A stretch of DNA of 64,000 nt, from NCBI GenBank assembly GCA_934098735.1, contig CAKOOS010000005.1, positions 4,358 through 68,357 on the forward strand, in the 5' to 3' direction. Positions within the stretch are counted from its first letter, which is position 1. Each line of letters starts with the position of its first letter. A model generated the notes under the pieces. It searched no databases and was not told the origin of the DNA. It was given only the letters and a program-made list of their open reading frames with translations. Below, in pieces: positions 412 to 62,110 of the stretch. The position numbers and the translations under genes were made by a program. Source of the DNA: an uncultured Bacilli bacterium. GTDB lineage: Bacteria; Bacillota_I; Bacilli_A; RF39; UBA660.

Positions 412-874
412 ATTCAATAACTTTGCCTTCTTTCAAACTTTTTTTTACATCTATAATTCTTTGATTTGTACTACCTCTAAATTTACAATTTAAACTTTTT
501 TTATCTAATACAAACTTACCATCGACTAGAACATCAATATCCTTTAACAGTTCCTTTTTAGCATCATTTAAAGAATTTAAAGCCTCAAAAGTATAACCAG
601 TATATGCCCAAACATTTAAAGAAAGACTATGTGCATATTTAGATATTTTTAAAGCAGCCTCTGGTTGAAAAAAAGGATCGCCTCCAGATAACGTTATTCC
701 ATCTTGATATTTTAATTCTTTAATTTCTTTAAGTATATTATCTATATTTACAGAAAAGCCCCCATTTAAATCATGTGTTTCTGGATTGTGACACCCAACA
801 CAATTATGTAAACAACCTTGAAACCAGATAACCGTTCTAATACCTTTTCCATCAATAAAGCTATCTGGTTGCAT
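401..874 (-). CDS. nrdG: Anaerobic ribonucleoside-triphosphate reductase activating protein (radical SAM)
   Basis: CxxxCxxC cluster 'FQGCLHNCVGCHN' and the motifs 'LSGGDP', 'VLVDGKFV' and 'RGSTNQ' typical of NrdG. The size (about 157-168 aa) fits. The start was trimmed to the second Met, MQPDSF. Confidence 0.85.
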   Translation of the reverse strand: MQPDSFIDGKGIRTVIWFQGCLHNCVGCHNPETHDLNGGFSVNIDNILKEIKELKYQDGITLSGGDPFFQPEAALKISKYAHSLSLNVWAYTGYTFEALNSLNDAKKELLKDIDVLVDGKFVLDKKSLNCKFRGSTNQRIIDVKKSLKEGKVIEYEV

Positions 875-887
875 GCTAGCTGCTAAT

Positions 888-1814
888 CTAACTTCCACTA
901 CTATCACTCTTTTCTTTATGTCTTTTTACCAAATTTGCTACTTTTATAAAATGATGATTTACACCAGATTTCCCAATTTTATAGCCATATTCCATCGTAA
1001 CAATATCAGCAAGCTCCTGCAAACTTACTTCTGGATATTTTTCACGAGCCTCCATAACTATTTGAACCTTTTCATCAAGTAAATCCCATAAATTATTTTC
1101 TCTTAAATAATTTATATTTTTAAGTTGTAATTGACCAGTCTTAAAACTTTTTTCTTGATTAGCAATTTCACAATTATTTAGTCTATTTACCATATTTTTA
1201 TGATCTTTGTAAATTCTAATATCTTCAAAATAAAATAAAGAATTAATTGCTTTAAATCGTTTAATTAAATCACTAATACATTCACTCATTTTAATATAAA
1301 CAATATTTTTATAGCCTCTTTTAATAATTTTAGCTTTCAAATTAAATTCATTTAATATATTTAAAATTTGTTTAGCAAGTATATCCTTAGTAATAATAAA
1401 CTCCAAATGATAACCACTTGTACTAGGATTAGTAACATTTCCAACAGCTAAAAAAGCACCTTGTAAAAATGCAATTTTCTCTTCTTCACTAACAAGTTCA
1501 TCTAATTTATAACTTCTCCCTAAATTAATATTTTTCTTTATAAAATCTACTTTATCTTTAATAGAAATTATATATATTTGCTTTACTTTAAATCTTTTTT
1601 GAATTCTTATCACTATACTTGGATTTACATTAAAGGTTTGTTTTATTTCTTTATAAACTCTTCTAGCAATACTTGCATTTTCTAAAGTTAAAACTATTTC
1701 ATCATTACTAAATTTTGCTATACAATTCATAAATGCTTCAAGCTCATATCGTGCTTCAAGTAAATTAAAATCATTTTTTGAAATTTCTTCTTTTAACATT
1801 GTTGTAAAAGTCAT
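888..1814 (-). CDS. whiA: Sporulation/cell-division transcription regulator WhiA
   Basis: 308 aa with a LAGLIDADG-like N-domain plus a C-terminal HTH. The yvcK-whiA arrangement is conserved. Confidence 0.88.
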   Translation of the reverse strand: MTFTTMLKEEISKNDFNLLEARYELEAFMNCIAKFSNDEIVLTLENASIARRVYKEIKQTFNVNPSIVIRIQKRFKVKQIYIISIKDKVDFIKKNINLGRSYKLDELVSEEEKIAFLQGAFLAVGNVTNPSTSGYHLEFIITKDILAKQILNILNEFNLKAKIIKRGYKNIVYIKMSECISDLIKRFKAINSLFYFEDIRIYKDHKNMVNRLNNCEIANQEKSFKTGQLQLKNINYLRENNLWDLLDEKVQIVMEAREKYPEVSLQELADIVTMEYGYKIGKSGVNHHFIKVANLVKRHKEKSDSSGS

Positions 1815-2767
1815 TATTTACGTCCATCCATTAAGTAAGAAAATATTAAATATCCAGTCTTAAGAGCATCATGTCTATACACTCCATCTTCAATTGTAAA
1901 CAACTTATCAGAAATAACATATATATTATCATTATCAAGTTCATGCATATCTAAAAGAACTGGATCTTTTTGCTCTTCATTAGAGTATTTACTTGCTAAT
2001 TTACTACTCATAATAGCATTATTAGCTATGACAACATCTAATTTATTTTTTCCTAAGTATTTTTCTAAATAATCTAAATGATCTTTAACAGTAAAGCCAT
2101 CTGTTTCTCCAGGTTGAGTAAATAAATTACAAACATATACTTTTTCCCCTTTAGATTTATTTATTATATCAACTAGATCCTTATCAATTAAATGGGGTAT
2201 TATACTTGTAAGTAAACTTCCAGAAGAAAAAATAATTAAATCTGCCTCATTTACAGCCTTTATAACTTTGGGATTTATATTTATTTTTTTATCATATTTA
2301 ACTTCTACAATTTTTTTAGCACATTTAGTAAGTTGTTCTTCTCCCCTAATTTCTTTTCCATCATTTGTAACGCCAATTAAATTTACATTGTCTTCCGTCA
2401 AAGGTATAACAGTACCTTTAACATCTAGTATTTTTTCCATAACTGGCAAAGCACTAGCAAAATTTCCTTTTAAATCTAAAAGAGCCGTTAAAAGTAAATT
2501 TTTAACAGAATGAATTCCTAAACTTTTGGATTTAGTAAAACGATAATTCATTAAATCAATAACATCTTGATTTGTATCTGCCATACTAAGCATAACCTTA
2601 GAAATATCTCCAACAGCAGGAATATTTAGTTCTCTTCTAAGTATTCCTGTACTTTTTCCATTATCAGCAACTGATACAACTGCTGTAATATCAACAGGAA
2701 ATAATTTTATACCCTTTAAAAGTTGTGAAAGACCACTTCCACCACCAAAAATTACTATTTTTTTCAT
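1814..2767 (-). CDS. yvcK: Gluconeogenesis factor / UPF0052 (CofD-like) protein YvcK
   Basis: N-terminal 'IVIFGGGSGLS', 317 aa, directly upstream of whiA. Confidence 0.85.
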   Translation of the reverse strand: MKKIVIFGGGSGLSQLLKGIKLFPVDITAVVSVADNGKSTGILRRELNIPAVGDISKVMLSMADTNQDVIDLMNYRFTKSKSLGIHSVKNLLLTALLDLKGNFASALPVMEKILDVKGTVIPLTEDNVNLIGVTNDGKEIRGEEQLTKCAKKIVEVKYDKKININPKVIKAVNEADLIIFSSGSLLTSIIPHLIDKDLVDIINKSKGEKVYVCNLFTQPGETDGFTVKDHLDYLEKYLGKNKLDVVIANNAIMSSKLASKYSNEEQKDPVLLDMHELDNDNIYVISDKLFTIEDGVYRHDALKTGYLIFSYLMDGRK

Positions 2768-2814
2768 ATTTCATCACAAAACAAGTGTATCATAAATACT
2801 TTTAAAATGCAAAA

Positions 2815-3690
2815 TTACAAAAAGAATCTTTTAGAATTCTTTACTCCTCCACTTACCTCAAAACATTTATCTGTAATAATAAAAGCATCAGGATCTATTT
2901 CTAGTATTTTTTGTTTTAATAAATAATAATCACTGTTATTTACTACACACATAATTAAATAGCCGTTTTTTTGAGTATATCCACCTTTACTAGGAATAGT
3001 TGTAAAACCAGTATGAAATTCATCGATTATTAATTTTTTAATTTTACGCATTTTTTTTGTATAAATATAAAATAATTTACTATCAGATACTCCAAACATA
3101 ATTTTATCAATAAAAAATGTTGAACAAGTTAAAATAATAAAAGAATAAACTCCTTTTGTAAAACCAAATACAATCATTCCTAAAATAATTATGACACTAT
3201 TAGCCACTACCATAGATTTTGATTCCGATATTTTAGCATATTTATTAATTATTTGCATAATTATATCTGATCCTCCAGTAGAAAAACCACTTCGATAAAT
3301 AAGACCACTACTAACACCATATAAAATTACGGCAAAAAGTAAAATTAAATAAAAGTCATCTGTTACTAAATAATTTGTTAAATATGTTGCAACTGGAAGA
3401 GATATAGTTACCATAAGGGGATACAATATAGAACCTAATATATTTTTTTTAGTTACTTCAAAATCTAAAAAAATTGCCCCAATAAAAAGTAATAAAAAGT
3501 TAGTAACATAAATAAACACTTGAGAATTCCAACCAAGAAGTTTTTGAACAACAATTGCAATACCACTAAAACCAGAAACCACTAAATTATTCGGAGTCAA
3601 AAACAAATTAAAACATAAAGCATACAAAAATACTCCAAATACAAAAGAAATTCCATCAATTATAATATCTCGTGTATTATTATCTACCAT
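2815..3690 (-). CDS. YitT-family integral membrane protein (DUF161/DUF2179)
   Basis: Multiple TM helices plus a C-terminal DUF2179-like soluble domain; 291 aa. Confidence 0.65.
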   Translation of the reverse strand: MVDNNTRDIIIDGISFVFGVFLYALCFNLFLTPNNLVVSGFSGIAIVVQKLLGWNSQVFIYVTNFLLLFIGAIFLDFEVTKKNILGSILYPLMVTISLPVATYLTNYLVTDDFYLILLFAVILYGVSSGLIYRSGFSTGGSDIIMQIINKYAKISESKSMVVANSVIIILGMIVFGFTKGVYSFIILTCSTFFIDKIMFGVSDSKLFYIYTKKMRKIKKLIIDEFHTGFTTIPSKGGYTQKNGYLIMCVVNNSDYYLLKQKILEIDPDAFIITDKCFEVSGGVKNSKRFFL

Positions 3691-3787
3691 CTTACTTCCA
3701 TCCTAATCTGCTTTAATTATAAAACATTAATAGTTTTTTGGCAATTATTAATATTTATTTCATATATTGTTTTAGAGGTGATATTTT

Positions 3788-4144
3788 ATGAACGGAAATT
3801 ATTATCAAAATCCAACTTTTCCAACAAACAATTTTCAAACACCACCAGGTAATATGTCAGTAACAGATGTTACTAATAATATTCCGCAAGAACAAAGTTA
3901 TATCGAAAATATTTTACGTTTAAACAAAGGAAGAAAAATAAAAGCTTATGTTTCTTACCCAGATAGCAGTGCTTGGCAAAACAAAGTATACGAAGGAATA
4001 ATTGAAGAAGCTGGAAAAGATCATTTAATAATCAGAGATAACACTAATAATTTATGGTATTTAATTAGAATCATTTACTTAAATTACGTAGAATTTATGG
4101 AACCAATAATTTATTCTCATTCATATTCAGAAAAAACTTACTAA
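3788..4144 (+). CDS. gerQ: Spore coat protein GerQ-like
   Basis: Q/P/N-rich N-terminus. The C-terminal 'SYIENILRLNKGRK...GIIEEAGKDHLIIRD...YLIRIIYLNYVEF' resembles the GerQ/YwdL conserved domain. Confidence 0.5.
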   Translation: MNGNYYQNPTFPTNNFQTPPGNMSVTDVTNNIPQEQSYIENILRLNKGRKIKAYVSYPDSSAWQNKVYEGIIEEAGKDHLIIRDNTNNLWYLIRIIYLNYVEFMEPIIYSHSYSEKTY

Positions 4145-4164
4145 AATCACTTTTGTGATTTTTT

Positions 4165-4662
4165 TTAATAATAATAATTAAATCTTTTCTTTTCATCTCC
4201 TAAAGTAGTTTTAGGACCATGACCAGGATATAAAATTATTTCATCTGGGTATTTTTGAATTAGTTTTAAACTTTTTATCATATCTAGATCACTTCCAGTT
4301 TCTAAATCAGTTCTTCCAATTGTACCATAGAAAATAAAATCACCACAAAACATAATCTTATTTTCTTTAAAATAAAAAGTCTTACTATCAGCAGAATGAC
4401 CTGGATTATGAATTACTTCATAATCAAAGAATCCACTTTTATTGTTGGCCTTTAGTTTAAAATAATTTTCTACTTCTTTCAAAGCTCCGACATGATCAAA
4501 ATGATTGTGAGTAACAAGTATCTCTTTAACATTTTTATTTTTACAAGCTTCAATTATTTTTAAAGCTTCATCACCTGGATCAATTATTATACTAAAATTA
4601 TTTTTAGTTATTATATAACAATTTTCTTGTAATGCTCCAACTACTAAAGTATCTATTTGCAT
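4165..4662 (-). CDS. MBL-fold metallo-hydrolase
   Basis: 'THNHFDHVGA' His motif of the metallo-beta-lactamase fold; 165 aa. Confidence 0.7.
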   Translation of the reverse strand: MQIDTLVVGALQENCYIITKNNFSIIIDPGDEALKIIEACKNKNVKEILVTHNHFDHVGALKEVENYFKLKANNKSGFFDYEVIHNPGHSADSKTFYFKENKIMFCGDFIFYGTIGRTDLETGSDLDMIKSLKLIQKYPDEIILYPGHGPKTTLGDEKKRFNYYY

Positions 4663-4734
4663 AAAATCACCAATTATAATATAACAAAAAAGCTACATTC
4701 TAACAACAAAAAAATTTCTCTTTCGAGAAACTTT

Positions 4735-5970
4735 TTAACCAAACCACTGAGTTCTTGAATAAAACCAAGCACCTTTGCCAGGATATCCTGGGGGATTAAT
4801 TAAGTGGGCTACAAATAGTTTATATGCATTCCTAGCTGGATATTCAGTATAATATCCTTCAGATACTGACAAATGCAAGTGAGCTCCAAATGTACAAGTA
4901 TCATATCCACCATATTTAGCAGACGTACTATAACCACCAGATTTACCAATAACTGTCTGAGTTGTTATATTTTGTCCTTCTTTTACACTTACTGATAATA
5001 AATGAGCATATAATAAAGTATATTTTTTACCAGCTACAAGTGACTGAACATAAACTTGATTACCACCACAGTTAGTTCTAATTATACTTATAACTCTTCC
5101 GTTAGTTGAAGAATAAACAGTTGTTCCCTCTGCCATTCCTAAATCAATTCCACTATGATTGCTAGATTTTCCATTTAAAATACGATAACCAAACAAACTA
5201 GATACGTAAGCCTTACTTACAGGTTTTAACCATCCAGTATTAGCTCCATAAGAAATACATACTGCAAGCCGATCAGAATCTTTACAACCGGCATCTTCGT
5301 ACATTTTAATAAGTGATTTTTGAATTTTAATTTCATCTTCAATTGAAACTGATATATCAGATAATTCTAACATACTACTATCTAATTCTGCAATTTTTTG
5401 TTCATAAGTTGTAATATTACTTTGTAATTGTTTTTCATAATTTTTCAAATCAACTTGTTTTTGTTCATTTGTCTTTATAAGACTATCTAGTTCTGCTAGT
5501 TTGTTTTTATTATATGTTGCAAGTTGTTCAATTGCATCAATACGCATAATTAAATCTGTCATAGAAGCTGAGTCACTAACAAATTGTAAATAAGCATTAT
5601 CACCATTCATAAGTTGATAAAAAGCCATTATTTCATTAGTTTGTTCATTTAACTCTGTAATCTTAGTCTGCGTACTTTCTATTTCTGCCTTCGCAGTTGC
5701 TATATTATTTTCTGACTTTTCTATTTCAGAATGTGCTTCATTAATTGCTACATTCTTTGCATTAATTTCTGCTTTCGTCAAATTCTTTTTATATTCATTA
5801 TTTCGATACTTTGTTTCTAAATCTTTAAGTTCAGCTTTTAATTCTGCAAGCGTCGTAGCTTTGCTAGAAGCATTAGTTTTCGTAGGTATAATCAAAAAAG
5901 AGTAAGCTATAATAACTATAACGCTTATATAACGAATGAAATAGTTTAAATATTTTTTAATAGTCATCAT
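4735..5970 (-). CDS. Coiled-coil M23 (LytM) metalloendopeptidase. Probably the FtsEX-controlled murein hydrolase or activator (EnvC/PcsB-like role)
   Basis: N-terminal signal/TM and a long coiled-coil. The C-terminal M23 domain carries 'HSGIDL', 'YAHL' and 'HLHL'. It sits immediately downstream of ftsE-ftsX. Confidence 0.8.
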   Translation of the reverse strand: MMTIKKYLNYFIRYISVIVIIAYSFLIIPTKTNASSKATTLAELKAELKDLETKYRNNEYKKNLTKAEINAKNVAINEAHSEIEKSENNIATAKAEIESTQTKITELNEQTNEIMAFYQLMNGDNAYLQFVSDSASMTDLIMRIDAIEQLATYNKNKLAELDSLIKTNEQKQVDLKNYEKQLQSNITTYEQKIAELDSSMLELSDISVSIEDEIKIQKSLIKMYEDAGCKDSDRLAVCISYGANTGWLKPVSKAYVSSLFGYRILNGKSSNHSGIDLGMAEGTTVYSSTNGRVISIIRTNCGGNQVYVQSLVAGKKYTLLYAHLLSVSVKEGQNITTQTVIGKSGGYSTSAKYGGYDTCTFGAHLHLSVSEGYYTEYPARNAYKLFVAHLINPPGYPGKGAWFYSRTQWFG

Positions 5971-6884
5971 ATTTTTAAATACTTCCTTACCGCTTTAATA
6001 CTTCCAAACATTCCAACAATCGCTCCAATACCTACTAAGATCAAAGAAACCCAAAATACAAAATTATAAGGTTTTATAAGCATAATCATATTTGTAAAAA
6101 GCTTTCCATGTAATCTGGTATATAAAATTACATAACCATAAATAGTAATACAAACAGGTATTATTGATCCAATAATCCCAATTATAAATCCCTCAAATAG
6201 AAAAGGAAGTTTTATACAAATATTTGAAGCACCAACTAAACGCATAATTTCAATTTCATTTCGGCGACTAAATATTGTAAGCTTAATTGTATTGCCAATT
6301 AAAAAACTTGTAACTAAAACTAATGCAATTACTAAAACTATAACAACTTTTTGAACTACATCAAATACAGATATAACTTTTTCAACCATTCCTTCGCCAT
6401 ATTTGACAGTATCTACACCATTAATACTTTCAATATACTCACTAGTTTCTTTTAATTTTTTTACATCATTTACTTTTAAAATAAAAGAATTTAAAAGAGG
6501 ATTTTCATCTAAATAATTAAGAACTGTTTCAAAAGAAGAATTATAATTACTCATTTCAAGTTTCCATTCGTCTTTACTCTTAAATACTACTTCTGATACA
6601 TTACTTTGATTGTTTAAATCAGCTTTAATATTCTCTATTTGCTCATCTGTTACATCTTTATTTAAATATACAATAATTGTTAGTTCATCTTCAATTAATT
6701 TAGTAGCATTATCAACGTTTGCTGCAGCTACTAAAGCAACAGCTACTAAAATTAAAGTTATAGTTGTACACATAATTGAAGCAAAACTTAAAGAAAAATT
6801 TCTTATTACACTTTTAAAAGCATCTCTTATGCTTCGGAAAAAAATTCTAAATGCCTTCATTTGTCTTATAACTTCCTTTCGCAT
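5967..6884 (-). CDS. ftsX: Cell-division ABC permease-like protein FtsX
   Basis: Four TM helices with a large extracellular loop; overlaps ftsE as in ftsEX operons. Confidence 0.85.
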   Translation of the reverse strand: MRKEVIRQMKAFRIFFRSIRDAFKSVIRNFSLSFASIMCTTITLILVAVALVAAANVDNATKLIEDELTIIVYLNKDVTDEQIENIKADLNNQSNVSEVVFKSKDEWKLEMSNYNSSFETVLNYLDENPLLNSFILKVNDVKKLKETSEYIESINGVDTVKYGEGMVEKVISVFDVVQKVVIVLVIALVLVTSFLIGNTIKLTIFSRRNEIEIMRLVGASNICIKLPFLFEGFIIGIIGSIIPVCITIYGYVILYTRLHGKLFTNMIMLIKPYNFVFWVSLILVGIGAIVGMFGSIKAVRKYLKI

Positions 6885-7548
6885 AATCTCCAGCTAAAAC
6901 ACCATGATTAATTAATAAAACTCTTTTCTTCATTCTATCAACAATTTCTTTATCATGGGTAGCCATTATAATAGTTGTACCTAATTCTTTATTAATTTTT
7001 TCAATAACATTCATTATATCTTTACTAGTTTCAGGATCTAGGTTACCTGTAGGTTCATCACATATTAACAATTTTGGCTCATTTACAATAGCCCTAGCTA
7101 TACAAACTCTTTGTTGTTCACCACCAGATAGCTCTCCCGGAAAAGCTCTCACCTTTTCCTTTAAACCTACCCTTTCTAAAGCACTTATTACTTTAGGTCT
7201 AATTTCTGAACTCTTCATCCCAATACATTCTAACGCAAAAGCTACATTTTCATAAACAGTTAATCTAGGAAGAAGTTTAAAATCTTGAAATACTATTCCT
7301 AGTTTTCTTCTTAATTTATATACTTTTCTATTTCTTAATTTACCTACATTTAAACCACCAACATATACAGTTCCACTTGTTGGTTTTTCTTCTCGATAAA
7401 GCATTTTTATAAATGTTGATTTACCACTAGCAGTAAGACCAATAACAAAAACAAACTCACCCTTAGAAACTTCAACAGACAAATCTGCAATAGCAGTTAT
7501 GCCATTTTTATAGGTTTTATTTACATTTTTCAATTCTATAAACTTCAT
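6847..7548 (-). CDS. ftsE: Cell-division ATP-binding protein FtsE
   Basis: Walker A 'GLTASGKST', the LSGGEQQR signature and Walker B 'LLICDEPTGNLD'. Confidence 0.9.
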   Translation of the reverse strand: MKFIELKNVNKTYKNGITAIADLSVEVSKGEFVFVIGLTASGKSTFIKMLYREEKPTSGTVYVGGLNVGKLRNRKVYKLRRKLGIVFQDFKLLPRLTVYENVAFALECIGMKSSEIRPKVISALERVGLKEKVRAFPGELSGGEQQRVCIARAIVNEPKLLICDEPTGNLDPETSKDIMNVIEKINKELGTTIIMATHDKEIVDRMKKRVLLINHGVLAGDYAKGSYKTNEGI

Positions 7549-7676
7549 GATGGTCCTCCAGCATAATTATATCATTAATAATTTTATTTATAAATGGTAA
7601 ATTATTGTATTTTACATAAACATTACTTGTAAAGGCCTATTATATTTATTATAATTGAGGATATGGAGATGATTAT

Positions 7677-9287
7677 TTGAAAAAAAATGAATTTATAGAA
7701 GGAGCTATGATTGCCACAATAGCAATAATAGTATCAAAAATATTGGGAGTTCTTTATGTTATTCCATTTTATAAAATTATTGGTGAAAACGGCGGAGCTT
7801 TATATGGTTATGCCTATAATATATATAACTTTTTTCTTATTATTTCTTCTGCAGGTATTCCACTTGCCATTAGTAAAATAACAAGTGAATATAATACTTT
7901 GGGAAAATATAAAGAAAAAACATACATGTTTAAGTATTCTAAAAAAATAATTAGAATATTTTCAATTGTATCTTTTTGTATTTGCTTTTTTGGAGCTAAT
8001 TTAATTGCCAATGCTATCGTTGGAGACTTAACTGGAGGAAACAGTGTATCAGATGTAGCTTTTGTAATAAGATGTGTTTCTTTTGCCATCTTAGTTGTTC
8101 CAATTCTTAGTATTTTTAGAGGTTACTTACAAGGTCATAGATATATATCTGTTCCTTCAATAGGACAAGTTATTGAACAATTTGTAAGAGTTGTAGTTAT
8201 TATAGCAGGTTCTTTCTTAGCCTTAAAAGTCTTTAATTTATCGGTTGCTCAAGCAGTTGGAATTGCCGTCTTCGGAGCATGCGCTGGAGCATTAGTTTCT
8301 TATGGTTATTTATTAATTAAAACTAATAAAGTTAAAAACGAAATCTTTGTTCCATTTGAAGAAGTTTCTAAAGAAGAAAAGAAAAGCATATTAAAAAAAT
8401 TAATTGGATATTGCATTCCTTTCATCATTATAAACGTAGCTAATAGTATATATAATTCTGTTGACATGATTCTAGTTATAAAGGGATTAAATTGGATAGG
8501 TTACCCTGCCAAAGACATTGAGACTATATCATCAGTATTTACAACATGGGGAAGTAAACTTGTTAGTGTTGTAACAGCAATCGCAACTGGACTTGTAATC
8601 AGCTTAATTCCTTCTATAGTTGAAGCATTTACTAAAAATGATATGGAAGAAGTAAATAACCAATTTAATAAAACATTACAAGTTCTACTATATATAATTT
8701 TGCCTCTTTCAATATTTTTAAGCATATTTTCTAAAGAAGTATGGACATGCTTTTACGGAGAAAGTTTTTATGGTCCTTTAATATTTAAATATATTATATT
8801 GCTTGCCATTTTAGATAGTGCTTATATAATGATATGTAGTGCTCTTCAAGGATTAAGCAAAACCAAATTAATTTATATATCCGTAGCAACTGGATTAATT
8901 ACTAAAACTATTTTAGATATTCCTTTAATATTTTTATTTAACAAACTTGGTATTTATCCTTTTTATGGAGCAATTCTAGCAACCACAATTGGTTATATTT
9001 TATCATTAATTATACCTCTTTATACACTAAAGACTAAATACAAATTTAATTACCAAAAAACTATAAAATCTATACCAAAATTAGTTTTGACAGTTGTTAT
9101 ATTAATAGTTATTTCCGTGCTTTTACGCAATATAGTATTTAGCCGTGTATCAGGTAGAATTGCAATTTTATTAGCTTTAGGAGTAATAGGTTTAGTTGAT
9201 CTAATCATTTACTACTTACTAAACAAAGAATTATTAAATGATTTACTCGGAGATAAAATTTTAAAAAAATTTAAAAAGAATAAATAA
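7677..9287 (+). CDS. MOP-superfamily polysaccharide/lipid-II flippase (SpoVB/YtgP-like)
   Basis: 536 aa with about 14 TM helices. The N-terminus is typical of SpoVB/MurJ-family proteins. Confidence 0.7.
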   Translation: MKKNEFIEGAMIATIAIIVSKILGVLYVIPFYKIIGENGGALYGYAYNIYNFFLIISSAGIPLAISKITSEYNTLGKYKEKTYMFKYSKKIIRIFSIVSFCICFFGANLIANAIVGDLTGGNSVSDVAFVIRCVSFAILVVPILSIFRGYLQGHRYISVPSIGQVIEQFVRVVVIIAGSFLALKVFNLSVAQAVGIAVFGACAGALVSYGYLLIKTNKVKNEIFVPFEEVSKEEKKSILKKLIGYCIPFIIINVANSIYNSVDMILVIKGLNWIGYPAKDIETISSVFTTWGSKLVSVVTAIATGLVISLIPSIVEAFTKNDMEEVNNQFNKTLQVLLYIILPLSIFLSIFSKEVWTCFYGESFYGPLIFKYIILLAILDSAYIMICSALQGLSKTKLIYISVATGLITKTILDIPLIFLFNKLGIYPFYGAILATTIGYILSLIIPLYTLKTKYKFNYQKTIKSIPKLVLTVVILIVISVLLRNIVFSRVSGRIAILLALGVIGLVDLIIYYLLNKELLNDLLGDKILKKFKKNK

Positions 9288-9288
9288 A

Positions 9289-9322
9289 AAATGTTTTAAA
9301 CATTAAGTTTAAAACATTTTTT
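9289..9322. terminator. Bidirectional rho-independent terminator between the flippase gene (+) and gap (-)
   Basis: Inverted repeat AATGTTTTAAAC-ATTAA-GTTTAAAACATT flanked by A-runs and T-runs. Confidence 0.6.
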
Positions 9323-19797: not shown

Positions 19798-20045
19798 ATT
19801 TATCACCTCACAAAATAAAAAAACCATAAACTAAGGACGAGTATTACCCGCGGTACCACCTTAATTCATGATTTATCATGCATCTTCATTTATAACGTAA
19901 TTACCCGATTTCGACTCCAAAACCATGTTCAATATTTTCCTTTATTCTTTTCCACCAACCAAGAACTCTCTATAAAATTCTTAATATTTACTCTTTTCTT
20001 CAACGTCAAACTAAAAATAGTTTATCATAAAGCTTTTCATTATTC
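19798..20045 (-). promoter_or_regulatory. T-box riboswitch leader with a probable Met (AUG) specifier, upstream of dut-metG
   Basis: Minus-strand RNA contains AAUUAAGGUGGUACCGCGGG (about 19847-19866), a 13/14 match to the T-box consensus AGGGUGGNACCGCG. An upstream AGAGAG/GA-type element and an AUG lie in the putative specifier region (GAACAUGG). The last gene of the operon is metG. Confidence 0.6.
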
Positions 20046-27628: not shown

Positions 27629-27817
27629 CTATAATAAAACAAAATATATTGCTATTAATGCCAATAATCCACTCATTCCTAAAGTAGAAACAACTCCTAC
27701 CGTAATAAAATTTATTGGAATAAATATTTTTAATCCGGTAGCAATTAAATTAAATGCATAAACTAAACAAATAGCAAACACTACTCTCTTAATTACTGTA
27801 AATATTATCTTTTTCAT
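27629..27817 (-). CDS. bofA: Pro-sigma-K processing inhibitor BofA
   Basis: Small two-TM protein. 'FIPINFITVGVVSTLGMSGLLALIAI' parallels the conserved C-terminal half of BofA; it follows recR as in Bacillus. Confidence 0.6.
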   Translation of the reverse strand: MKKIIFTVIKRVVFAICLVYAFNLIATGLKIFIPINFITVGVVSTLGMSGLLALIAIYFVLL

Positions 27818-30820: not shown

Positions 30821-30856
30821 AAAAACCTTCTTTTCACAAAAAAAGTGCACACAAAC

Positions 30857-30945
30857 ATAGACTGACGTGGCTGCTATTTTCCAATCCTGACCAGATTACA
30901 GCATATTTGTTGCACGCCTAAATACTATCAAAAATCTTATAAAAA
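30857..30945 (-). ncRNA. ffs: Small (4.5S-type) signal recognition particle RNA; boundaries approximate
   Basis: Minus-strand RNA folds as a long hairpin (GUGCAACAAAUAUG.../...CAUAGUUUGUGUGCAC). Its apical sequence UCUGGUCAGGAUUGGAAAAUAGCAGCC resembles the conserved SRP domain IV (GGUCAGGUCCGGAAGGAAGCAGCC). A U-run follows. SRP RNA lies beside tadA and dnaX in Bacillus. Confidence 0.5.
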
Positions 30946-30987
30946 GTCAATAAAAATTAGATTTTCATATATTATGTTAACCAAAAT

Positions 30988-31001
30988 ATTTCCTGGGAAA
31001 T
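30988..31001. promoter_or_regulatory. Noc-binding-site-like palindrome ATTTCCTGGGAAAT (one mismatch to the NBS consensus)
   Basis: Direct read. The B. subtilis NBS consensus is ATTTCCCGGGAAAT. Confidence 0.55.
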
Positions 31002-31039
31002 AAAATATATGGTTTTTTCCAATATTATGTAAACCAATT

Positions 31040-31053
31040 ATTTCCCGGGAAAT
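31040..31053. promoter_or_regulatory. Noc-binding-site palindrome ATTTCCCGGGAAAT (perfect consensus)
   Basis: Direct read of a perfect 14-bp palindrome identical to the published NBS consensus. Confidence 0.65.
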
Positions 31054-31111
31054 AATTTAAGTTTAATTTTTTGCCAAAAGTACGTTATTTTTGCAAGTAA
31101 ACAAACGTTCG

Positions 31112-31127
31112 TGTTTCACGTGAAACA
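31112..31127. promoter_or_regulatory. parS: parS site 1, TGTTTCACGTGAAACA
   Basis: Perfect 16-bp palindrome matching the Firmicute parS consensus TGTTNCACGTGAAACA. Confidence 0.8.
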
Positions 31128-31302
31128 TATTAACAAGTTATCAACTCTATCTACTTAAAAATAGCAACAAAATACTAACACGAAAAATGTTATATAAAAC
31201 AAACACATTATTAATAATTTTAATTTAATTTTGTACATCTATAGATAACACAGCTATATAATAAAAATTAATTATATAAAAATATAAACAAGTTATCAAC
31301 AA

Positions 31303-31318
31303 TGTTTCACGTGAAACA
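31303..31318. promoter_or_regulatory. parS: parS site 2, TGTTTCACGTGAAACA, immediately preceded by the DnaA-box-like TTATCAACA
   Basis: Identical perfect palindrome. A TTATCAACA 9-mer abuts it at about 31293-31301. Confidence 0.8.
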
Positions 31319-31571
31319 TTAACAACAATATTTTATTGTAGACTAACAAATTAGCAACAATTACTAAATTGTTTAAATTAATTATTATTAATATAATTTA
31401 ATTATAAATATCATTGCAATTGTTATCCTTTATTTAAAAATTAAAACCATTTAATTATTAATAAGCTTGTATTATATTTTACTTAGCTTAATTATTATTA
31501 TTTATTAATATTAATTAATATATTATTATCTATCAAATAAATAAAATTATAATTATTATTATTATTAACTA

Positions 31572-31587
31572 TGTTTCACGTGAAACA
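31572..31587. promoter_or_regulatory. parS: parS site 3, TGTTTCACGTGAAACA
   Basis: Third identical copy within 480 bp. Confidence 0.8.
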
Positions 31588-31713
31588 TTTTAAATTGCAC
31601 TTTTAAATAATTTTATGTAACTAAAAAAGGAAAACTATTAATTGTTTTCCTTTTTCTATTAATTCCTTATTAAATCAATTATTTTTTTAATTCTTGTATA
31701 TACAAAGTATATA

Positions 31714-34161
31714 CTAATTATTTTCTTCTTCAGATACCTCTGTTTCTTCTTTATCTACAAGGCTTATTGTTGATACCTTTTGATTTTCTTTTAAGTTAAT
31801 TAGCCTTAAACCTTGCGTTACTCTACCTAGAACAGATATTTGATCTAATGGCATACGCATCGTCATACCTGAATTTGTCATTATAACCAATTCTTTATTT
31901 TCTTCAACTATTTTAACACTAACTAAATTTCCATTTTTTTCAGTAATATTTAAGGCTTTAACACCTTTACTACCACGTTTAGTTTGACGATATTCGCTTA
32001 CTTTTGTTTGTTTACCATATCCTTTTTCCGTAACAAGTAATATCGTATTATCTTCTTTTACAATTTCTAAGCAAATACATTTACTATCATCTAAAGAAAT
32101 ACCCCTTACACCAGATGCAGTACGTCCCATGACTCTTATTTCGTCTTCATTAAATTTTACCATTCTACCACTATTACTACCAAGTAGAACCAAATCATTT
32201 CCAGTTGTTTTCTTAACTCCAATAAGTTTATCATTTTCTCTTAAAGATATACATATTTTTCCACTATTTCTAATATTTTCAAATTCACTAATTAAAGTCT
32301 TCTTAACTATACCGCCTTGAGTTGCAAATAAAAGATATTTACATTCATCATTTTTATTAATTTTAATAACAGCATTTATTTTTTCATCTTTTTCAATTTG
32401 AAGTAAATTTACAATAGGAAGACCTTTAGATTGTCTAGAATATTCTGGTATTTCATAGCCTTTTAATCTATAAACCTTACCCTTATCGGTAAAGAAAAGT
32501 ATATAATCGTGTGTTGATAAGTTAAGAATATGTTCAACAAAGTCCTCGTCATTCGTTGTAATTCCTTTAATTCCAACACCACCACGATTTTGTGACTTAA
32601 ATGTATCAGCAGTAGTTCTCTTTATATAACCCTTATTTGTTAAAACAACCAAAATATTTTCTTCTGGAATCAAAGATTCATCTTCAATATAATCTATTGC
32701 AGTCATATCAATTTTAGTACGTCTTTCATCACCATATTTATCTTTAATTTCAGTCATTTCTTCTTTTATTATGTTTAACACCTTATTATTATCTGCTAAA
32801 ATAGCTCGTAAGCGTTCAATTTCAATTCTAAGGGCATTTAACTCTTCTTCAATCTTTTCGCGTTCTAGACCTGTTAAACGACGTAATTTCATTTCTAAAA
32901 TATTATCAGTTTGAGCTTCAGTCAATCCAAAGCGTTCCATTAATTTAGTTTTTGCTTCTCCATCAGCTTTAGATTCCTTAATTATTTTAATAACTTCATC
33001 TAAATTATCAAAAACTATCTTATACCCTTCTAATATATGAACTCTTTTTTCTGCCTTATCAAGTTCAAATTGTGTACGTCTTATTATAACTTCTTGTTGA
33101 TAATCAACATATTTAGCAATAATATCTTTTAATCCCAAAGTTCTCGGAGTTTTCTTATCAAGCATTAAGAATATAATACCAAATGTCGTTTGAAAAGCAG
33201 TATGTTTATATAAATTATTAAGAACAACTTGAGGATTAGCATCCTTTTTTAACGTAATTGTTATTTTAATACCATCTTTTAAATCAGTATGATAATCAGT
33301 TATTCCTTCTAAAACTTTATTATGTACTAGATCTGCTATTTTTTGTTTTAAATCAAGAGTATTTACTCCATAAGGAACTTCTTCAATAATTATATAATGT
33401 CTGCCATTTTTTTCTTCTATAGTCGCTTTACTCCTAATAGTTATAGAACCTCTACCAGTTTCATAAGCCTTTTTAATACCTGAATTACCTAATATGATAC
33501 CCCCAGTAGGAAAATCTGGTCCCTTTATATACTGCATAAGTTCATCAGTTGTTATATTTGGATTATCTATATATGCAATACAACCATCAATAACTTCTCC
33601 TAAATTATGCGGAGGAATGTTCGTAGCCATTCCAACAGCTATACCCATAGTACCATTTACAAGTATATTCGGATATCTAGAAGGTAAAACTTCTGGTTCC
33701 TTAGTTGTTTCATCATAATTAGGAATAAAATCAACTGTATTTTTATTGATATCTCGTAGTAATTCCATTGATATTTTAGCTAATTTACTTTCGGTATAAC
33801 GATAAGCGGCAGGTCTCGGATATTCAATATTACCAAAGTTACCATGTCCATCAACTAGTAAATAACGATAATTAAAGTCTTGAGCCATTCTTACCATAGC
33901 TTCATAAATAGAAGAATCTCCATGTGGGTGATATTTCCCCATTACGTCCCCAACTATCGTAGCACTTTTTCGATATTTTTTATCTGGTGTAAGACCATTT
34001 TCTAGCATATCATATATAATTCTTCTATGAACAGGCTTTAACCCATCTCTTAGATCTGGTAAAGCTCTTGCTTTTATAACACTCATTGAATATTCTATAA
34101 ATGATTTTTCTATTTCATCAACTATATTATTTTCATTTAATCTATCTATATTTTGATCCAT
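31714..34161 (-). CDS. gyrA: DNA gyrase subunit A
   Basis: 815 aa with the 'AAMRYTE'-like active-site region and a GyrA-box beta-pinwheel C-terminal domain; directly downstream of gyrB. Confidence 0.95.
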
Positions 34162-37304: not shown

Positions 37305-37733
37305 TTATTTTCTTGATAAATAAACCCACCATAATCTACTACATTTAAGCAGTTGATTATTTATAATAGTGTAACTAATATTAAGATCCAATTTTAAACC
37401 ATTTTTAAAGTTAATAACTATTAAGTTATCCACTTTTTCTAAGTTATTTATCATGTTAAAATTTATCCAAATAACCTCCATTTTAATATAAAGCGGAAAA
37501 AATATTAAACAATTTTTTTCATTAATAATAATTGGTAACTTATATTTTCCCCCGAGCAAACTACTACTTCCCTGAACTCTCCCTTTAAAAGAACTTCCAT
37601 AATAAACACAACTATTATTCAAAATACAACTTAAAACATTACCATTAAATGAATATTCTTCACTAACTTCTTTTACTAAAGTACTATAACTACACGCCCT
37701 AATATAAAGAGTATCTTGCGTAATCGTATACAT
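37305..37733 (-). CDS. ComK-family (competence transcription factor-like) protein, short form
   Basis: 'CVYYGSSFKGRVQGSSSLLG...KLPIIINEKNCLIFFPL' parallels the B. subtilis ComK core 'CVFYVN...FFGSSYAGRKAGT...KPPIMVDPSNQIFLFPT'. It has its own promoter-like TTGACA-N18-TAGTAT. Confidence 0.45.
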   Translation of the reverse strand: MYTITQDTLYIRACSYSTLVKEVSEEYSFNGNVLSCILNNSCVYYGSSFKGRVQGSSSLLGGKYKLPIIINEKNCLIFFPLYIKMEVIWINFNMINNLEKVDNLIVINFKNGLKLDLNISYTIINNQLLKCSRLWWVYLSRK

Positions 37734-38941: not shown

Positions 38942-39057
38942 ATTTTTTTCCTTCTTTCTTTTATTTATTTTTTAATATTTATATTAATAGTGTTGATAAT
39001 GTTGATAAGTTTTTTTTTCTAGATATATTCCTTACAAAATAACTTTTCTTATCAACA
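38942..39057. promoter_or_regulatory. oriC: oriC part 2 (dnaA-dnaN intergenic): AT-rich DNA unwinding element plus three DnaA-box-like 9-mers
   Basis: TGTTGATAA at about 38991-38999 and 39000-39008, and TTATCAACA at about 39049-39057. An AT tract TTTTATTTATTTTTTAATATTTATATTAATA lies between them. Confidence 0.7.
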
Positions 39058-40401
39058 TTATTGTAACTTCATCTTTATTTCTTTCAACATGTTATTAAGA
39101 TTATCATTTACTTCTAACTCTTCCTTTATTTTATCACATGCTGTAGATACTGTCGAGTGATCTCTTCCTCCGAATTCAAGGCCAATTTTAGCCAAGTTTT
39201 CATCTGTTTCAACCCGGCATAAATACATGGCTATATGCCTTGGTCTTACAACTGTATTAGTTCTTCTTTTACTTTTTAAATCATCAACGGATATTTTAAA
39301 GTACTCTGCTACGGCACTTTGAATTGATGCTATTGAATTGTTGATAAATATATTGGTATTAACATAATCCTTTAAAGCCTCATTAGCAAAATCAAGGGTT
39401 ATTTTATCCGGTACCATCATTGCTGTATATGCTAATAATCTATTAATTGTCCCTTCTATATGTCTTACATCATTTACACATGAATTAGCTATATATTCAA
39501 TAACATCTTCATTCAATTTATTTTCTATGCTTGTATTTTTAATCTTTGCCTTAATTATTTCGCACCTAAGATTAAAGTCTGGAGGATATATATCAACGGG
39601 TAATCCCCACATAAATCTACTTCGTAATCTCTCTTCTATCTTTTTTAAATCATCAGGACTTTTATCACTACTTATGATTATTTGTTTATTTGCTTGATGT
39701 AAAGCATTAAATGTGTGAAAAAATTCTTGTTGAGTTCTCTCAGCTCCAACTAAAAACTGTATATCATCAATTATTAAAACATCAACATTTCGGTACTTAT
39801 TTTTAAATTCATTTGCATAATTTAAATTATTATTACTAGTTGCAATTCCTGTAAATTCAGTCATAAATTCATTACTAGTTGTATAAAGAACCTTAAGTTT
39901 AGAATGATCTTTAATATAATTTCCAATTGCTTGCATTAAATGCGTTTTTCCAAGACCACTTCTTCCATATATAAATAATGGATTATGAATAGTACCAGGT
40001 GCTTCTGCAACAGCTCTTGCAGCTACAAAAGCTAACCTATTTGAATTACCTACAATATAAGAATCAAATGTAAATTTTGGATTTAAATTAGTATTCCACT
40101 CTACTTCTTTTTCCAATACTTCTTCTTCTACAACTGGCTGAACAAAAGTTTCAACTTCATCCTCAGTAATATATTTAAATGTATAGTTTATTCCAGTCAT
40201 TGAGAAAAACGATGCATCAATTATATCAGCATAAGTCTCAGTAAGCATCTGTTTATGAATTTCCATTGGAACTTTTATTGTTACTACATTGTTGACAATT
40301 GAAAGTAGTTCAAGTTTTGAAAACCAAATAGTATATGCATTTTGACTTACTTGTGTTTGAATATCATTTAAAAAACGCAAAAAAAGCTCATCTGTTTTCA
40401 T
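39058..40401 (-). CDS. dnaA: Chromosomal replication initiator protein DnaA
   Basis: AAA+ Walker A 'GRSGLGKTHL' and a domain IV HTH. Confidence 0.95.
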   Translation of the reverse strand: MKTDELFLRFLNDIQTQVSQNAYTIWFSKLELLSIVNNVVTIKVPMEIHKQMLTETYADIIDASFFSMTGINYTFKYITEDEVETFVQPVVEEEVLEKEVEWNTNLNPKFTFDSYIVGNSNRLAFVAARAVAEAPGTIHNPLFIYGRSGLGKTHLMQAIGNYIKDHSKLKVLYTTSNEFMTEFTGIATSNNNLNYANEFKNKYRNVDVLIIDDIQFLVGAERTQQEFFHTFNALHQANKQIIISSDKSPDDLKKIEERLRSRFMWGLPVDIYPPDFNLRCEIIKAKIKNTSIENKLNEDVIEYIANSCVNDVRHIEGTINRLLAYTAMMVPDKITLDFANEALKDYVNTNIFINNSIASIQSAVAEYFKISVDDLKSKRRTNTVVRPRHIAMYLCRVETDENLAKIGLEFGGRDHSTVSTACDKIKEELEVNDNLNNMLKEIKMKLQ

Positions 40402-40722
40402 ACCTCACCCCACTAACAAATTTCATAACTAAATTTTATACCATTTTCTGTTAAAAAAAAAGAGTAAATTTTAAAAAACTTATTATTCACAAAATTATCA
40501 ACGACAAAAGTCCCTAAAATTCGACATTTATTATAGTTATCAACACTATCAACAAATTTAAACTAACAATAAGACTTATTCACAAATTATAAACAATAAG
40601 GATTTAATAAAATGTTGTTAATTTTGTGGATTATTTTGTAAAGTTATCAACAAATTATCCACAATCTCCAAAAAACGATAGTTATCAACCATAATAGATG
40701 ATATAATAATAAAGGTGTAAAA
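40402..40722. promoter_or_regulatory. oriC: oriC part 1: cluster of about 9 DnaA boxes upstream of dnaA. One is a perfect TTATCCACA at about 40655-40663; the others are TTATCAACA/TTATTCACA variants
   Basis: Direct read of repeated TTATC[AC]ACA 9-mers in both orientations. Confidence 0.75.
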
Positions 40723-48226: not shown

Positions 48227-49354
48227 ATGATAGGGTTGATAGATGTGAATAATATGCAAATGGAAAATACCGTTTTACAAGTTCCTATAGAGGATATAAT
48301 ACCAAACCGTTTTCAACCACGGTTATCTTTTGATGATTCTTCTTTAAATGATTTAGCCTCATCAATTAAACAACATGGAATAATTCAACCTCTTGTTTTA
48401 AGAAGAAAAAATGACAAATATGAAATAATTGCGGGAGAAAGAAGATATAAAGCTGCGCGTATGGCTGGTTTAATTACTGTTCCTGCTATAATATCAAATT
48501 TAGACGATAATGCTTCAGCAGAAGTTGCAATCGTAGAAAATATTCAAAGAAAAGATTTAACAGCAATTGAAGAAGCAAAATCTTATCAAGCTCTTTTAGA
48601 TAAAGGCTATATGACACAAGAAGAATTAGCTCGCAAGATGGGCTTATCACAGTCAGCAATTTCTAATAAACTTAGGTTACTTTCACTTGATGAAGAAGTA
48701 CAAAATGCTATACTTGCTGAAAAAATATCTGAAAGACATGCTAGAACACTTTTAAAAGTTCCGAGTCATGAAAAACAAAAAGAATTATTAAATAAAGTAA
48801 TCAAAGAAAGAATGACAGTTAAACAATTAGAAGATGAAATAAAAAAGAATGAAGGAAGTGCAAAAGAAGTGAATCAAGAAGAAATTCCGATTATAAATTC
48901 AACTCCAGATATTAACAATGTTATAAATAATTCAGTAGATATTAATAAAATTACTAATAGTCCAGAGGAATTATTTACGGAAGAAGTAACTCCAAAAACT
49001 GTAACTCCTGAAAAATTCTTTTCTAATCCCGAAAAAATGCCTAATAAATTCTTTAATTTTTTGGAAGATACAGCAGCTAATATGAACGTTCATGAAGAAA
49101 TTCCTATTATTGAAATTGCACCAGAAGAAAAAACAAAAGATAATAATTCAATTACAAAAACTGATAATATTGAAATGTTAGATGATTTTATAGTTCCAAC
49201 AACAGCTGAAGTAAAAGTAGAAGATGACTACTTAGATTCAGTATTAAAGACTATTCGTGGATTAAATTTAGATAGTGATAAAGTAGTTGTTAAGGAAATG
49301 AATTTACCAACAGAATATCATATCAATATCATTATAAAAAAAGATAAAATCTAG
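48227..49354 (+). CDS. noc: ParB-family protein, Noc (nucleoid occlusion)-like, with a long low-complexity linker; start uncertain
   Basis: ParB box 'IIPNRFQPR' and 'GERRYKAA'. The HTH region 'GLSQSAISNKLRLL...KISERHARTLL' matches Noc (GQSTIANKLRLL, KITERHARALI) better than Spo0J (SRPHIANHLRLL). It sits at the rsmG-noc position. Confidence 0.7.
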   Translation: MIGLIDVNNMQMENTVLQVPIEDIIPNRFQPRLSFDDSSLNDLASSIKQHGIIQPLVLRRKNDKYEIIAGERRYKAARMAGLITVPAIISNLDDNASAEVAIVENIQRKDLTAIEEAKSYQALLDKGYMTQEELARKMGLSQSAISNKLRLLSLDEEVQNAILAEKISERHARTLLKVPSHEKQKELLNKVIKERMTVKQLEDEIKKNEGSAKEVNQEEIPIINSTPDINNVINNSVDINKITNSPEELFTEEVTPKTVTPEKFFSNPEKMPNKFFNFLEDTAANMNVHEEIPIIEIAPEEKTKDNNSITKTDNIEMLDDFIVPTTAEVKVEDDYLDSVLKTIRGLNLDSDKVVVKEMNLPTEYHINIIIKKDKI

Positions 49355-56030: not shown

Positions 56031-56543
56031 GTGAAAAAAATAGTTATAGTTCTTTTTATAGTTATGTGTTTACTTCTTTTTTCTAAGAAAGATACAAATA
56101 ATGTAATAATTCCTAAAGATGCAATTCGTTTTAGGATTATAGCAAATAGTAATAAAATTGAAGATCAAAAAACTAAATTAGATTTAAAAACTGATCTAGA
56201 GCCAATTATTAATAACATTTTATCAACATCAAAAGACATAAATGAGACGAGAGAAAACATTAAAGGAAATTTAAATGAAATTAAAAGTACTATAGAAAAA
56301 TATGATTCTAATTATAAAATAAATTTTGGTAGTAATTATTTTCCAGAAAAAAACTATAAAGGCGTAACTTATAAAGCAGGTAATTATGAATCACTAGTCA
56401 TAACTTTAGGTAATGGTCTTGGAGATAACTGGTGGTGTGTTTTATTTCCACCTTTATGTTTATTGGAAGCTAAAGAAGAAGATTATGATGACTATACTTA
56501 CTCATTTTTTATAAAAGAAATATTAAATAATAATTCTAAATAG
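56031..56543 (+). CDS. spoIIR: Stage II sporulation protein R
   Basis: Signal peptide, 'IRFRIIANSN' and 'GDNWWCVLFPPLC' SpoIIR motifs; prfA-prmC-spoIIR linkage as in Bacillus. Confidence 0.75.
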   Translation: MKKIVIVLFIVMCLLLFSKKDTNNVIIPKDAIRFRIIANSNKIEDQKTKLDLKTDLEPIINNILSTSKDINETRENIKGNLNEIKSTIEKYDSNYKINFGSNYFPEKNYKGVTYKAGNYESLVITLGNGLGDNWWCVLFPPLCLLEAKEEDYDDYTYSFFIKEILNNNSK

Positions 56544-60191: not shown

Positions 60192-60286
60192 ATTAATATT
60201 TTGCCTTGCTAATAAAAAAAAATATGATATAATAGTTAAGAAACGAATTACTATGTCATGAACTTGACATGGCGGAAGGAGAGAGT

Positions 60287-61192: not shown

Positions 61193-62110
61193 ATGAAAAT
61201 AAAAAATAGATATTTAATAATATTAATTATCTTATTAAGCTTAATAGCTATAAAAAGCAGTCCCAAAAAGACTGCTTCTTTTAATAATGACGAAAAAACT
61301 AAAGAAGAAAAAAAAGAACCGTTTAAAATAAATGTTGTAAATAAAAAAACAGGTGAAATTATAAATTTGGATTTAGAAAACTATATAATTGGGGTTGTGG
61401 CTGGCGAAATGCCCGCTTCATTTGATGTTGAAGCTTTAAAAGCTCAAGCCATAGCTTCTAGAACTTATGCTCTATATAAAATTAAAAATAACAAGACTTT
61501 AACAACTGATATAAGTACACAAGTATATATAACTAATGAAGATATGCAAAATAAATGGAAAGAAAACTATAATTTATATTATGAAAAAATAAAAAATGCT
61601 GTTTTAGAAACAAAGGATTTAGTCATTACTTATAATGGTGATTTGATAAGTAGTTACTATTTTGCAATGTCAAATGGTAAAACAGAGGATTCAAAATTAG
61701 TATTTGGAACTGATGTTGAATACTTAAAAAGTGTTGAATCTAATGAGAATATAGAAACTAAAAAAACAATTTCAATGTCTAAAAGTGATTTTTGTACTAA
61801 ACTAAGCATTGATTGCCAAGATATAGTCATAAAAAACGAAGAAAAAACATCATCGGGTAGAATTCAGAGCATAGTTATCAACAATAAAATATTTAAAGGA
61901 ACCGAAATAAGAACTTTGCTTGGATTAAGGTCAACTGACTTTAATATATCATTAGATGAAAATAACATAATAATTACCACTAATGGTTATGGCCACGGTG
62001 TTGGAATGAGTCAATATGGAGCCAATGCATTAGCTAAAAGTGGTTATAATTATGAAGAAATTTTAAAGCATTATTATCAAAATACAAATATTACCAAAAT
62101 TAATGTATAA
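61193..62110 (+). CDS. spoIID: Stage II sporulation protein D (lytic transglycosylase, SpoIID/LytB domain)
   Basis: 'ALKAQAIASRTYAL' and 'GYGHGVGMSQYGA' motifs. Confidence 0.85.
   Translation: MKIKNRYLIILIILLSLIAIKSSPKKTASFNNDEKTKEEKKEPFKINVVNKKTGEIINLDLENYIIGVVAGEMPASFDVEALKAQAIASRTYALYKIKNNKTLTTDISTQVYITNEDMQNKWKENYNLYYEKIKNAVLETKDLVITYNGDLISSYYFAMSNGKTEDSKLVFGTDVEYLKSVESNENIETKKTISMSKSDFCTKLSIDCQDIVIKNEEKTSSGRIQSIVINNKIFKGTEIRTLLGLRSTDFNISLDENNIIITTNGYGHGVGMSQYGANALAKSGYNYEEILKHYYQNTNITKINV

Follow-up and report, generated by a model that had tools for sequence, protein, structure and literature searches.

Paired parS and Noc-binding sites in an origin-proximal gyrA-ffs spacer of uncultured low-GC Bacilli: a putative loading hub for two ParB-family proteins

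ParB and Noc are textbook diverged paralogs that load at their respective sites, parS and the Noc-binding site (NBS), as CTP-dependent clamps and spread over several kb. The two sites differ by two bases per half-site, and the two proteins are usually studied as separate systems with separate site distributions. The window analyzed here (the whole stretch of DNA under study, 64,000 nucleotides in length) carries both types of site, side by side, in one intergenic region between gyrA and ffs. This raises the question of whether such packing is a conserved property of the locus and, if so, which proteins read the sites and what their joint presence near the origin would imply.

Sites and setting of the gyrA-ffs spacer

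The features of the window that bear on this question are listed below by position, with strand where it applies.

30836-30921, minus strand: ffs (small SRP RNA), conserved flank of the site array
30922-30950, minus strand: ffs promoter-like site TTGACT-17-TAGTAT with TG, predicted, at the ffs-side boundary of the array
30987-31002: NBS site 1, TATTTCCTGGGAAATA, one mismatch (core ATTTCCTGGGAAAT, 30988-31001), pattern match
31039-31054: NBS site 2, perfect 16-mer TATTTCCCGGGAAATA (core ATTTCCCGGGAAAT exact, 31040-31053), pattern match
31112-31127: parS site 1, perfect TGTTTCACGTGAAACA, pattern match
31303-31318: parS site 2, perfect TGTTTCACGTGAAACA, pattern match
31572-31587: parS site 3, gyrA-proximal, perfect TGTTTCACGTGAAACA, pattern match
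31624-31655: terminator-like hairpin 3' of gyrA
31714-34161, minus strand: gyrA (stop at 31714), conserved flank of the site array
38991-39057 and 40483-40663: DnaA-box clusters of a bipartite oriC, on either side of dnaA (39058-40401)
48227-49354, plus strand: Noc-type ParB-family gene (375 aa), predicted NBS reader, directly after rsmG (which ends at 48213)

The original prediction had named three mismatch-free parS 16-mers and two NBS palindromes in this region, and had proposed a pattern search for both, allowing up to two mismatches, as a check. Run on the 64 kb of the window, this search places every match in the spacer. For TGTTTCACGTGAAACA it returns only the three exact copies (0.02 expected by chance), and relaxing it to three mismatches adds only two weak matches; for ATTTCCCGGGAAAT it returns only the two spacer sites (0.16 expected by chance). 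All three parS sites match the 16-bp palindrome consensus TGTTNCACGTGAAACA exactly. One NBS is exact and the other departs from the consensus at a single central position (position 8 of the 16-mer), a variant that is also present in relatives; in both cases the match continues over the 16-bp form T-ATTTCCNGGGAAAT-A, that is, TATTTCCNGGGAAATA. Both site identifications are thus upheld. Successive sites are separated by 52, 73, 191 and 269 bp, with no common unit, so that the array in the window is non-tandem and differs from a sopC-like head-to-tail iteration with one ParB-family site per unit.

The prediction that these sites occupy a gene-free island beside gyrA also holds: open reading frames in the spacer (30922-31713) do not exceed 27 aa and the spacer gives no Rfam match below E=0.5, and a hidden gene or RNA was rejected on these grounds. 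At its gyrA end, the terminator-like hairpin lies 37 bp from parS site 3 and is predicted to shield the array from gyrBA transcription. At the opposite end, the promoter-like site (read from 30950 to 30922) is predicted to drive ffs, and NBS site 1 lies about 45 bp upstream of its -35 element.

The locus had further been described as origin-proximal, in agreement with a GC-skew minimum near 40.5 kb of the window and with the DnaA-box clusters flanking dnaA; from these two markers, the parS and NBS sites are located 7.4-9.7 kb from oriC. The sole perfect DnaA box near the origin is at 40655. Genes on the minus strand follow the order dnaA-dnaN-(ComK-like)-recF-gyrB-gyrA-[spacer]-ffs-tadA-dnaX-ybaB-recR, and the opposite side of oriC carries rpmH-rnpA-yidC-jag-mnmE-mnmG-rsmG, followed by the ParB-family gene. 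A second origin within the spacer was considered and rejected, since the spacer holds one DnaA box with one mismatch (31293) and no cluster.

Two minor features of this region can be recorded here. A 23-nt direct repeat, AAA(C/A)ATAT(T/A)AACAAGTTATCAAC, occurs at 31123-31145 (3' of parS site 1) and at 31278-31300 (5' of parS site 2), and the one-mismatch DnaA box at 31293, TTATCAACA, lies inside it. The ComK-family ORF between dnaN and recF (37305-37733, minus strand; 142 aa; Pfam PF06338, E=1.6e-23) occupies a position at which Firmicutes usually carry a small S4-like RNA-binding gene.

Recurrence and architecture of the array among relatives

Conservation of the array was analyzed by scanning 80 gyrA loci, one per species, for both palindromes; 69 of these loci belong to the lineage and 11 constitute an outgroup. 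The nearest GyrA relatives are uncultured gut Bacilli of roughly 25% GC, with records named Clostridium sp. CAG:609, Firmicutes bacterium CAG:460, Candidatus Coprovivens and 'uncultured Tenericutes/Bacilli'; the lineage probably corresponds to GTDB order RF39. Within 2 kb after gyrA, the 69 loci (100.8 kb in total) contain 248 parS sites at no more than one mismatch, 134 of them exact, and 120 NBS 16-mers, 98 of them exact. The remaining flanks of the same loci (1.017 Mb) contain no parS and 22 NBS, a density of about one NBS per 46 kb outside the arrays. Both site types are present in 41 of the 45 species with at least 1 kb of sequence downstream of gyrA, and one type is absent in the other four; this count includes as parS the symmetric variant TGTTCCACGTGGAACA, which is carried by three seemingly NBS-only species. 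These 45 species have a median of five parS and two NBS, with maxima of 19 and nine.

The synteny gyrA-[array]-ffs-tadA-dnaX is conserved, with a few species carrying the array between tadA and dnaX instead, and no such array is present in the outgroup loci (four Izemoplasma-type and seven with Clostridia-type record names). A separate scan of metagenome contigs for an exact parS 8-38 bp from an exact NBS matched at least 120 contigs, and gyrA, tadA or dnaX homologs adjoin the sites in all 116 of those with a recognizable neighbor gene. The pairing of parS and NBS is therefore lineage-wide among these uncultured low-GC Bacilli. That the packing singled out as unusual by the original prediction is meaningful is strongly supported by the presence of both site types in the same spacer in 41 of 45 species and by the absence of parS from the 1.02 Mb of flanks. 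The comparison of syntenic regions that it had proposed reveals a pairing that recurs at one locus, of which the window, with three parS and two NBS, is a small version; arrays in relatives reach 19 parS, or nine plus nine alternating sites.

One apparent higher-GC carrier of the array (L188, 48% GC) was rejected as a probably chimeric contig; along its positions 1-9295, GC content is low from about 6215, just before an NBS-parS pair, ffs and tadA. In a Coprovivens-like clade, a single exact NBS is also kept on the far side of dnaA and oriC, upstream of the gyrA stop by about 11.2 kb (at about 1150-1195 in L020, L022, L023, L025, L058, L062 and L073).

The distribution of NBS bears on the reading that these palindromes are operators of an unrelated regulator, for instance one controlling ffs, and that their match to the NBS is coincidental. 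The window lends this reading some plausibility, as both NBS lie just upstream of the ffs promoter and each is embedded in a direct repeat of about 38 bp. We nevertheless consider it very improbable. The 16-bp sequence is identical to the NBS of B. subtilis and S. aureus, and a reader gene of the cognate type is present in the window. Moreover, NBS in relatives belong to arrays whose distance from ffs can reach 1 kb or more, or which fall between tadA and dnaX, and the scattered NBS found elsewhere, about one per 46 kb, are as expected of Noc sites.

Array architecture differs between clades. In the clade of the window (GyrA about 90% identical or more), a block of parS is followed by one or two NBS at the ffs end (PPP..NN, with P for parS and N for NBS); the PPPNN array of the window is a small member of this clade, one relative of which has 19 parS. 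In more distant clades, the sites alternate (NPNP) through up to nine units, and several of these arrays are clean tandem repeats in which each unit carries both site types, such as 75 bp x 8.8 (L055), 64 bp x 7.8 (L050) and 84 bp x 5.8 (L046). Unit identity in several relatives reaches 90-92%, and copy number varies widely among close relatives. Both of these properties would be expected if the array were a neutral or selfish satellite that contains the palindromes by chance. Unit length and spacer sequence, however, vary between species, and the only elements common to all are the two palindromes and their immediate flanks, which argues for selection on the sites rather than for a selfish or neutral repeat. 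Since, in addition, the window and its clade are non-tandem and the array keeps one fixed location throughout the lineage, a satellite origin appears exceedingly unlikely.

The order of sites is also relevant to a different proposal, in which one bound protein acts as a boundary or roadblock that stops the sliding of the other and provides insulation, so that Noc might, for example, guard the ffs promoter from ParB clamps. Such a role would suit the clade of the window, in which NBS always occupy the ffs-facing side of the parS block, and the window itself, in which some 45 bp separate NBS site 1 from the -35 element of ffs downstream of it. A single boundary does not fit the distant clades, where the two site types alternate one-to-one through up to nine units, because roadblocks would then separate every loading site; on balance, we regard this proposal as unlikely. 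As a separate observation, centre-to-centre distances between adjacent NBS and parS in loci L001-L200 peak at 26-29 bp and 35-37 bp, in a dataset whose metagenome portion is biased by the search pattern and whose tandem copies are non-independent.

Two classes of site and their predicted readers

To quantify how sharply the two sites are separated, we counted all 16-mers conforming to the scaffold T-N-TTTC-N-C/G-N-GAAA-N-A in the window and the 80 genome loci. The resulting 262 sites comprise 141 pure parS, 118 pure NBS, three others and no parS/NBS half-site hybrids. The discriminating positions, two per half-site, are invariant in parS and 99-100% conserved in NBS, and the tolerated variation falls on the outermost bases and on position 5/12 of parS, a known degenerate position. 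A dual-specificity homodimer would be expected to tolerate hybrids, and this strict split therefore points to two separate readers.

The predicted NBS reader is encoded in the window, 17 kb from the spacer. The protein combines ParB_N (PF02195) and HTH_ParB (PF17762) domains, and its best PDB matches are Noc proteins; it scores 280.2 bits against the NCBIfam Noc model TIGR04285, below the cut-off of 315. Specificity in this family depends on four positions defined by Jalal et al., which read Q,K,K,R in canonical Noc and R,x,x,G in ParB (PMC7383237). In that system, Q173 reads adenine 1 of the NBS and R201 reads the C6:G-6 pair, one lysine, at either 179 or 184, suffices, R173 is always present in parS-specific variants, and dual-specificity variants have mostly T or S at 201 (PMC7383237). 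Alignment to Noc and Spo0J structures assigns Q,K,S,R to the window protein and Q,K,T,R to its orthologs, position 184 being S, T or N, and not K, in this family. With Q173, R201 and the permissive K179, the protein is predicted under these rules to read NBS and not parS. Among the nearest 150 cluster representatives (50% identity clusters), the readable motifs are Q-K-x-R or near variants, usually with N184, and none is of the R..G type. The best 120 close homologs are all orthologs, at 63% identity or more.

To locate the counterpart that would read parS, the window and 200 related loci were searched by tblastn, the queries being the Noc-type protein of the window and a fragment of Spo0J from B. 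subtilis; ortholog gene contexts, close homologs and cluster representatives were inspected as well. No parS-type ParB (R173/G201) turned up in the window, at distances of up to 10 kb from gyrA in the 69 genomes, in 120 of the metagenome loci or, in relatives, up to 10 kb from noc. Neither soj nor spo0J follows the Noc-type gene of the window, and no ParA-type domain is listed near noc in relatives. S. aureus offers a precedent in which noc and parB coexist without ParA (PMC5540599).

These results invite the reading that a single Noc-type protein binds both parS and NBS in a lineage without a separate ParB. In its favor are the finding that neither the 64 kb around oriC nor any related locus examined contains more than one ParB-family gene, the departure from the canonical lysine at position 184 and the existence of dual-specificity variants in a mutational scan (PMC7383237). 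Against it, the protein has Q173 and R201, whereas in the same scan parS-specific variants always have R173 and dual-specificity ones mostly T or S at 201 (PMC7383237); the absence of hybrids among the 262 sites, with their near-invariant discriminating bases, tells against it as well. We consider a single reader improbable, and favor two readers.

The predicted reader departs from canonical Noc in its membrane-binding region. In B. subtilis Noc, a highly conserved N-terminal amphipathic helix (aa 1-15) is needed for membrane binding and function (PMC4331003). In the window protein, which has no N-terminal membrane helix, 14-16 residues precede the ParB N domain, and in 144 family representatives the median number preceding the PNRFQPR motif is 16; any membrane tethering is therefore hypothetical. 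Instead, at least 61 of the 150 representatives (P0121-P0270) share an internal motif, N-[KR]-F-F-N-F-L-E-D-E-x-A-N-M (NKFFNFLED), which in the window protein lies at about aa 272-287, within a long variable linker, and is followed C-terminally by a short conserved, Noc-like end. The N-terminal motif of Noc reads ..S-R-F-F-G-L-G-E-K-E; NKFFNFLED resembles it and has a similar helical hydrophobic moment. We hypothesize that NKFFNFLED may be a relocated membrane-binding element that substitutes for the N-terminal helix. A Pfam search with the C-terminal 168 aa finds no domain, and the AlphaFold model (mean pLDDT 58.9) is confident for the N-terminal and DNA-binding domains only, its C-terminal half being uninformative. 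As judged from sequence, these proteins form a large and divergent subfamily of Noc in which the canonical membrane helix is missing.

A putative loading hub and its relation to known systems

Taken together, the conservation of parS and NBS at one spacer and the presence of a Noc-type reader in the window make co-loading of ParB and Noc, as the original prediction had suggested, the best reading of the sequence data. We consider it probable that two paralogous ParB-family proteins load at the gyrA-ffs spacer, which would make it a conserved hub close to the origin; the four alternatives weighed above (a dual reader, a roadblock, an ffs regulator and a neutral repeat) are each less likely. Points against the hub are that no parS-type ParB turned up in the loci searched, that the Noc-type protein departs from canonical Noc (a score below the TIGR04285 cut-off, no lysine at 184 and no N-terminal helix), that one site type is missing in four of 45 species and that the array of the window is small. 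Under the hub reading, a canonical ParB would load at parS as CTP-dependent clamps and mark the origin region, for instance for SMC loading, and the Noc-type protein would load at the adjacent NBS. Each would spread over several kb and, the hub being 7-10 kb from oriC, both would be expected to reach and cover the origin, so that the same origin-proximal DNA would carry the two proteins. Noc of S. aureus spreads over 8-10 kb and restrains replication initiation (PMC5540599), and an effect on oriC is therefore conceivable here.

In B. subtilis, Spo0J and Noc act together to prevent Z rings over the nucleoid (PMC6852036). By analogy, and with moderate to low certainty, the hub may physically couple a ParB-marked centromere to Noc function, namely membrane association and/or keeping the septum off the origin. 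Such coupling would hard-wire the Spo0J-Noc cooperation known genetically from B. subtilis. A more elaborate version, possible but doubtful in our estimation, is a composite centromere in which loading sites that alternate or adjoin would force ParB and Noc clamps onto shared DNA and the NKFFNFLED motif of the Noc-type protein tethers the ParB-marked origin to the membrane, providing ParA-independent segregation and/or anchoring in sporulation, together with a nucleoid-occlusion focus at the centromere. The suggestion of ParA independence derives from the reduced genome and from the lack of any ParA gene seen near noc.

Each component of this locus is already known: parS, NBS, ParB-family readers, clustered parS and tandem plasmid centromeres. 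The parS sites share with the ParB/Spo0J-parS system of B. subtilis the 16-bp palindrome TGTTNCACGTGAAACA, the tolerance at position 5/12 and the origin-proximal placement. In B. subtilis, however, about ten parS are scattered singly over a large origin domain, whereas here one spacer accounts for every parS in a region of at least -40/+23 kb around oriC, the copy number being three in the window and as high as 19 in relatives, where some form tandem repeats, and no parB gene stands beside noc in the related loci examined. With the Noc-NBS systems of B. subtilis and S. aureus, the lineage shares the NBS core, a reader with Q173, K179 and R201 encoded after rsmG, and some NBS scattered outside the hub. 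It differs from them in the concentration of NBS beside parS near oriC, and its reader differs from known Noc in lacking the N-terminal amphipathic helix, in having S, T or N at 184, in its long variable NKFFNFLED insertion and in its score below the TIGR04285 cut-off.

The F plasmid centromere sopC consists of 12 tandem 43-bp repeats bound by SopB. The head-to-tail repeats of relatives (62-105 bp) likewise each carry a ParB-family palindrome, but the hub is chromosomal and each of its units has sites of two ParB-family specificities instead of one. The paper that names sopC also covers clustered chromosomal parS, which number 20-23 in Streptomyces and Listeria and form a cluster of four in Pseudomonas (PMC7333895). 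The hub resembles such clusters in its multiple copies near oriC and species-dependent number; they extend, however, over tens to hundreds of kb across genes and have one specificity, whereas the hub occupies one spacer of 0.6-2 kb with NBS mixed in.

A full-text literature search returned no description of a fixed chromosomal locus in which parS and NBS are packed, co-amplified and often arranged one-to-one, of the confinement of all origin-proximal parS to one spacer or of a large Noc subfamily without the canonical membrane helix. The two site types are neighbors at this locus, in a one-to-one ratio in many species, and stay sequence-distinct throughout the lineage. This provides a natural setting for asking whether two CTP-dependent clamps that share a stretch of DNA cooperate or compete, or whether each is an obstacle to the other. 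It also bears on the question, raised in PMC7333895, of why parS form clusters and differ in number, and on whether attachment of the origin region to the membrane aids segregation in bacteria that lack ParA. Being short, the arrays could be transferred to B. subtilis, E. coli or in vitro assays despite their uncultured hosts.

Origin-proximal motif arrays that position the origin relative to the membrane or septum are also known from sporulating Bacillus, in the form of RacA-ram and RefZ-RBM. The present hub is likewise an origin-proximal motif array in a lineage bearing sporulation genes, and the proteins and motifs involved are unrelated. Sporulation genes in the window are a bofA-like gene (27629-27817), spoIIR (56031-56543) and spoIID (61193-62110), found here in a genome of 25% GC from a lineage that public records often label 'Tenericutes'. 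The window also contains a T-box leader (19830-20012, minus strand) and an L31 ribosomal-protein leader (60251-60281, plus strand), both ordinary.
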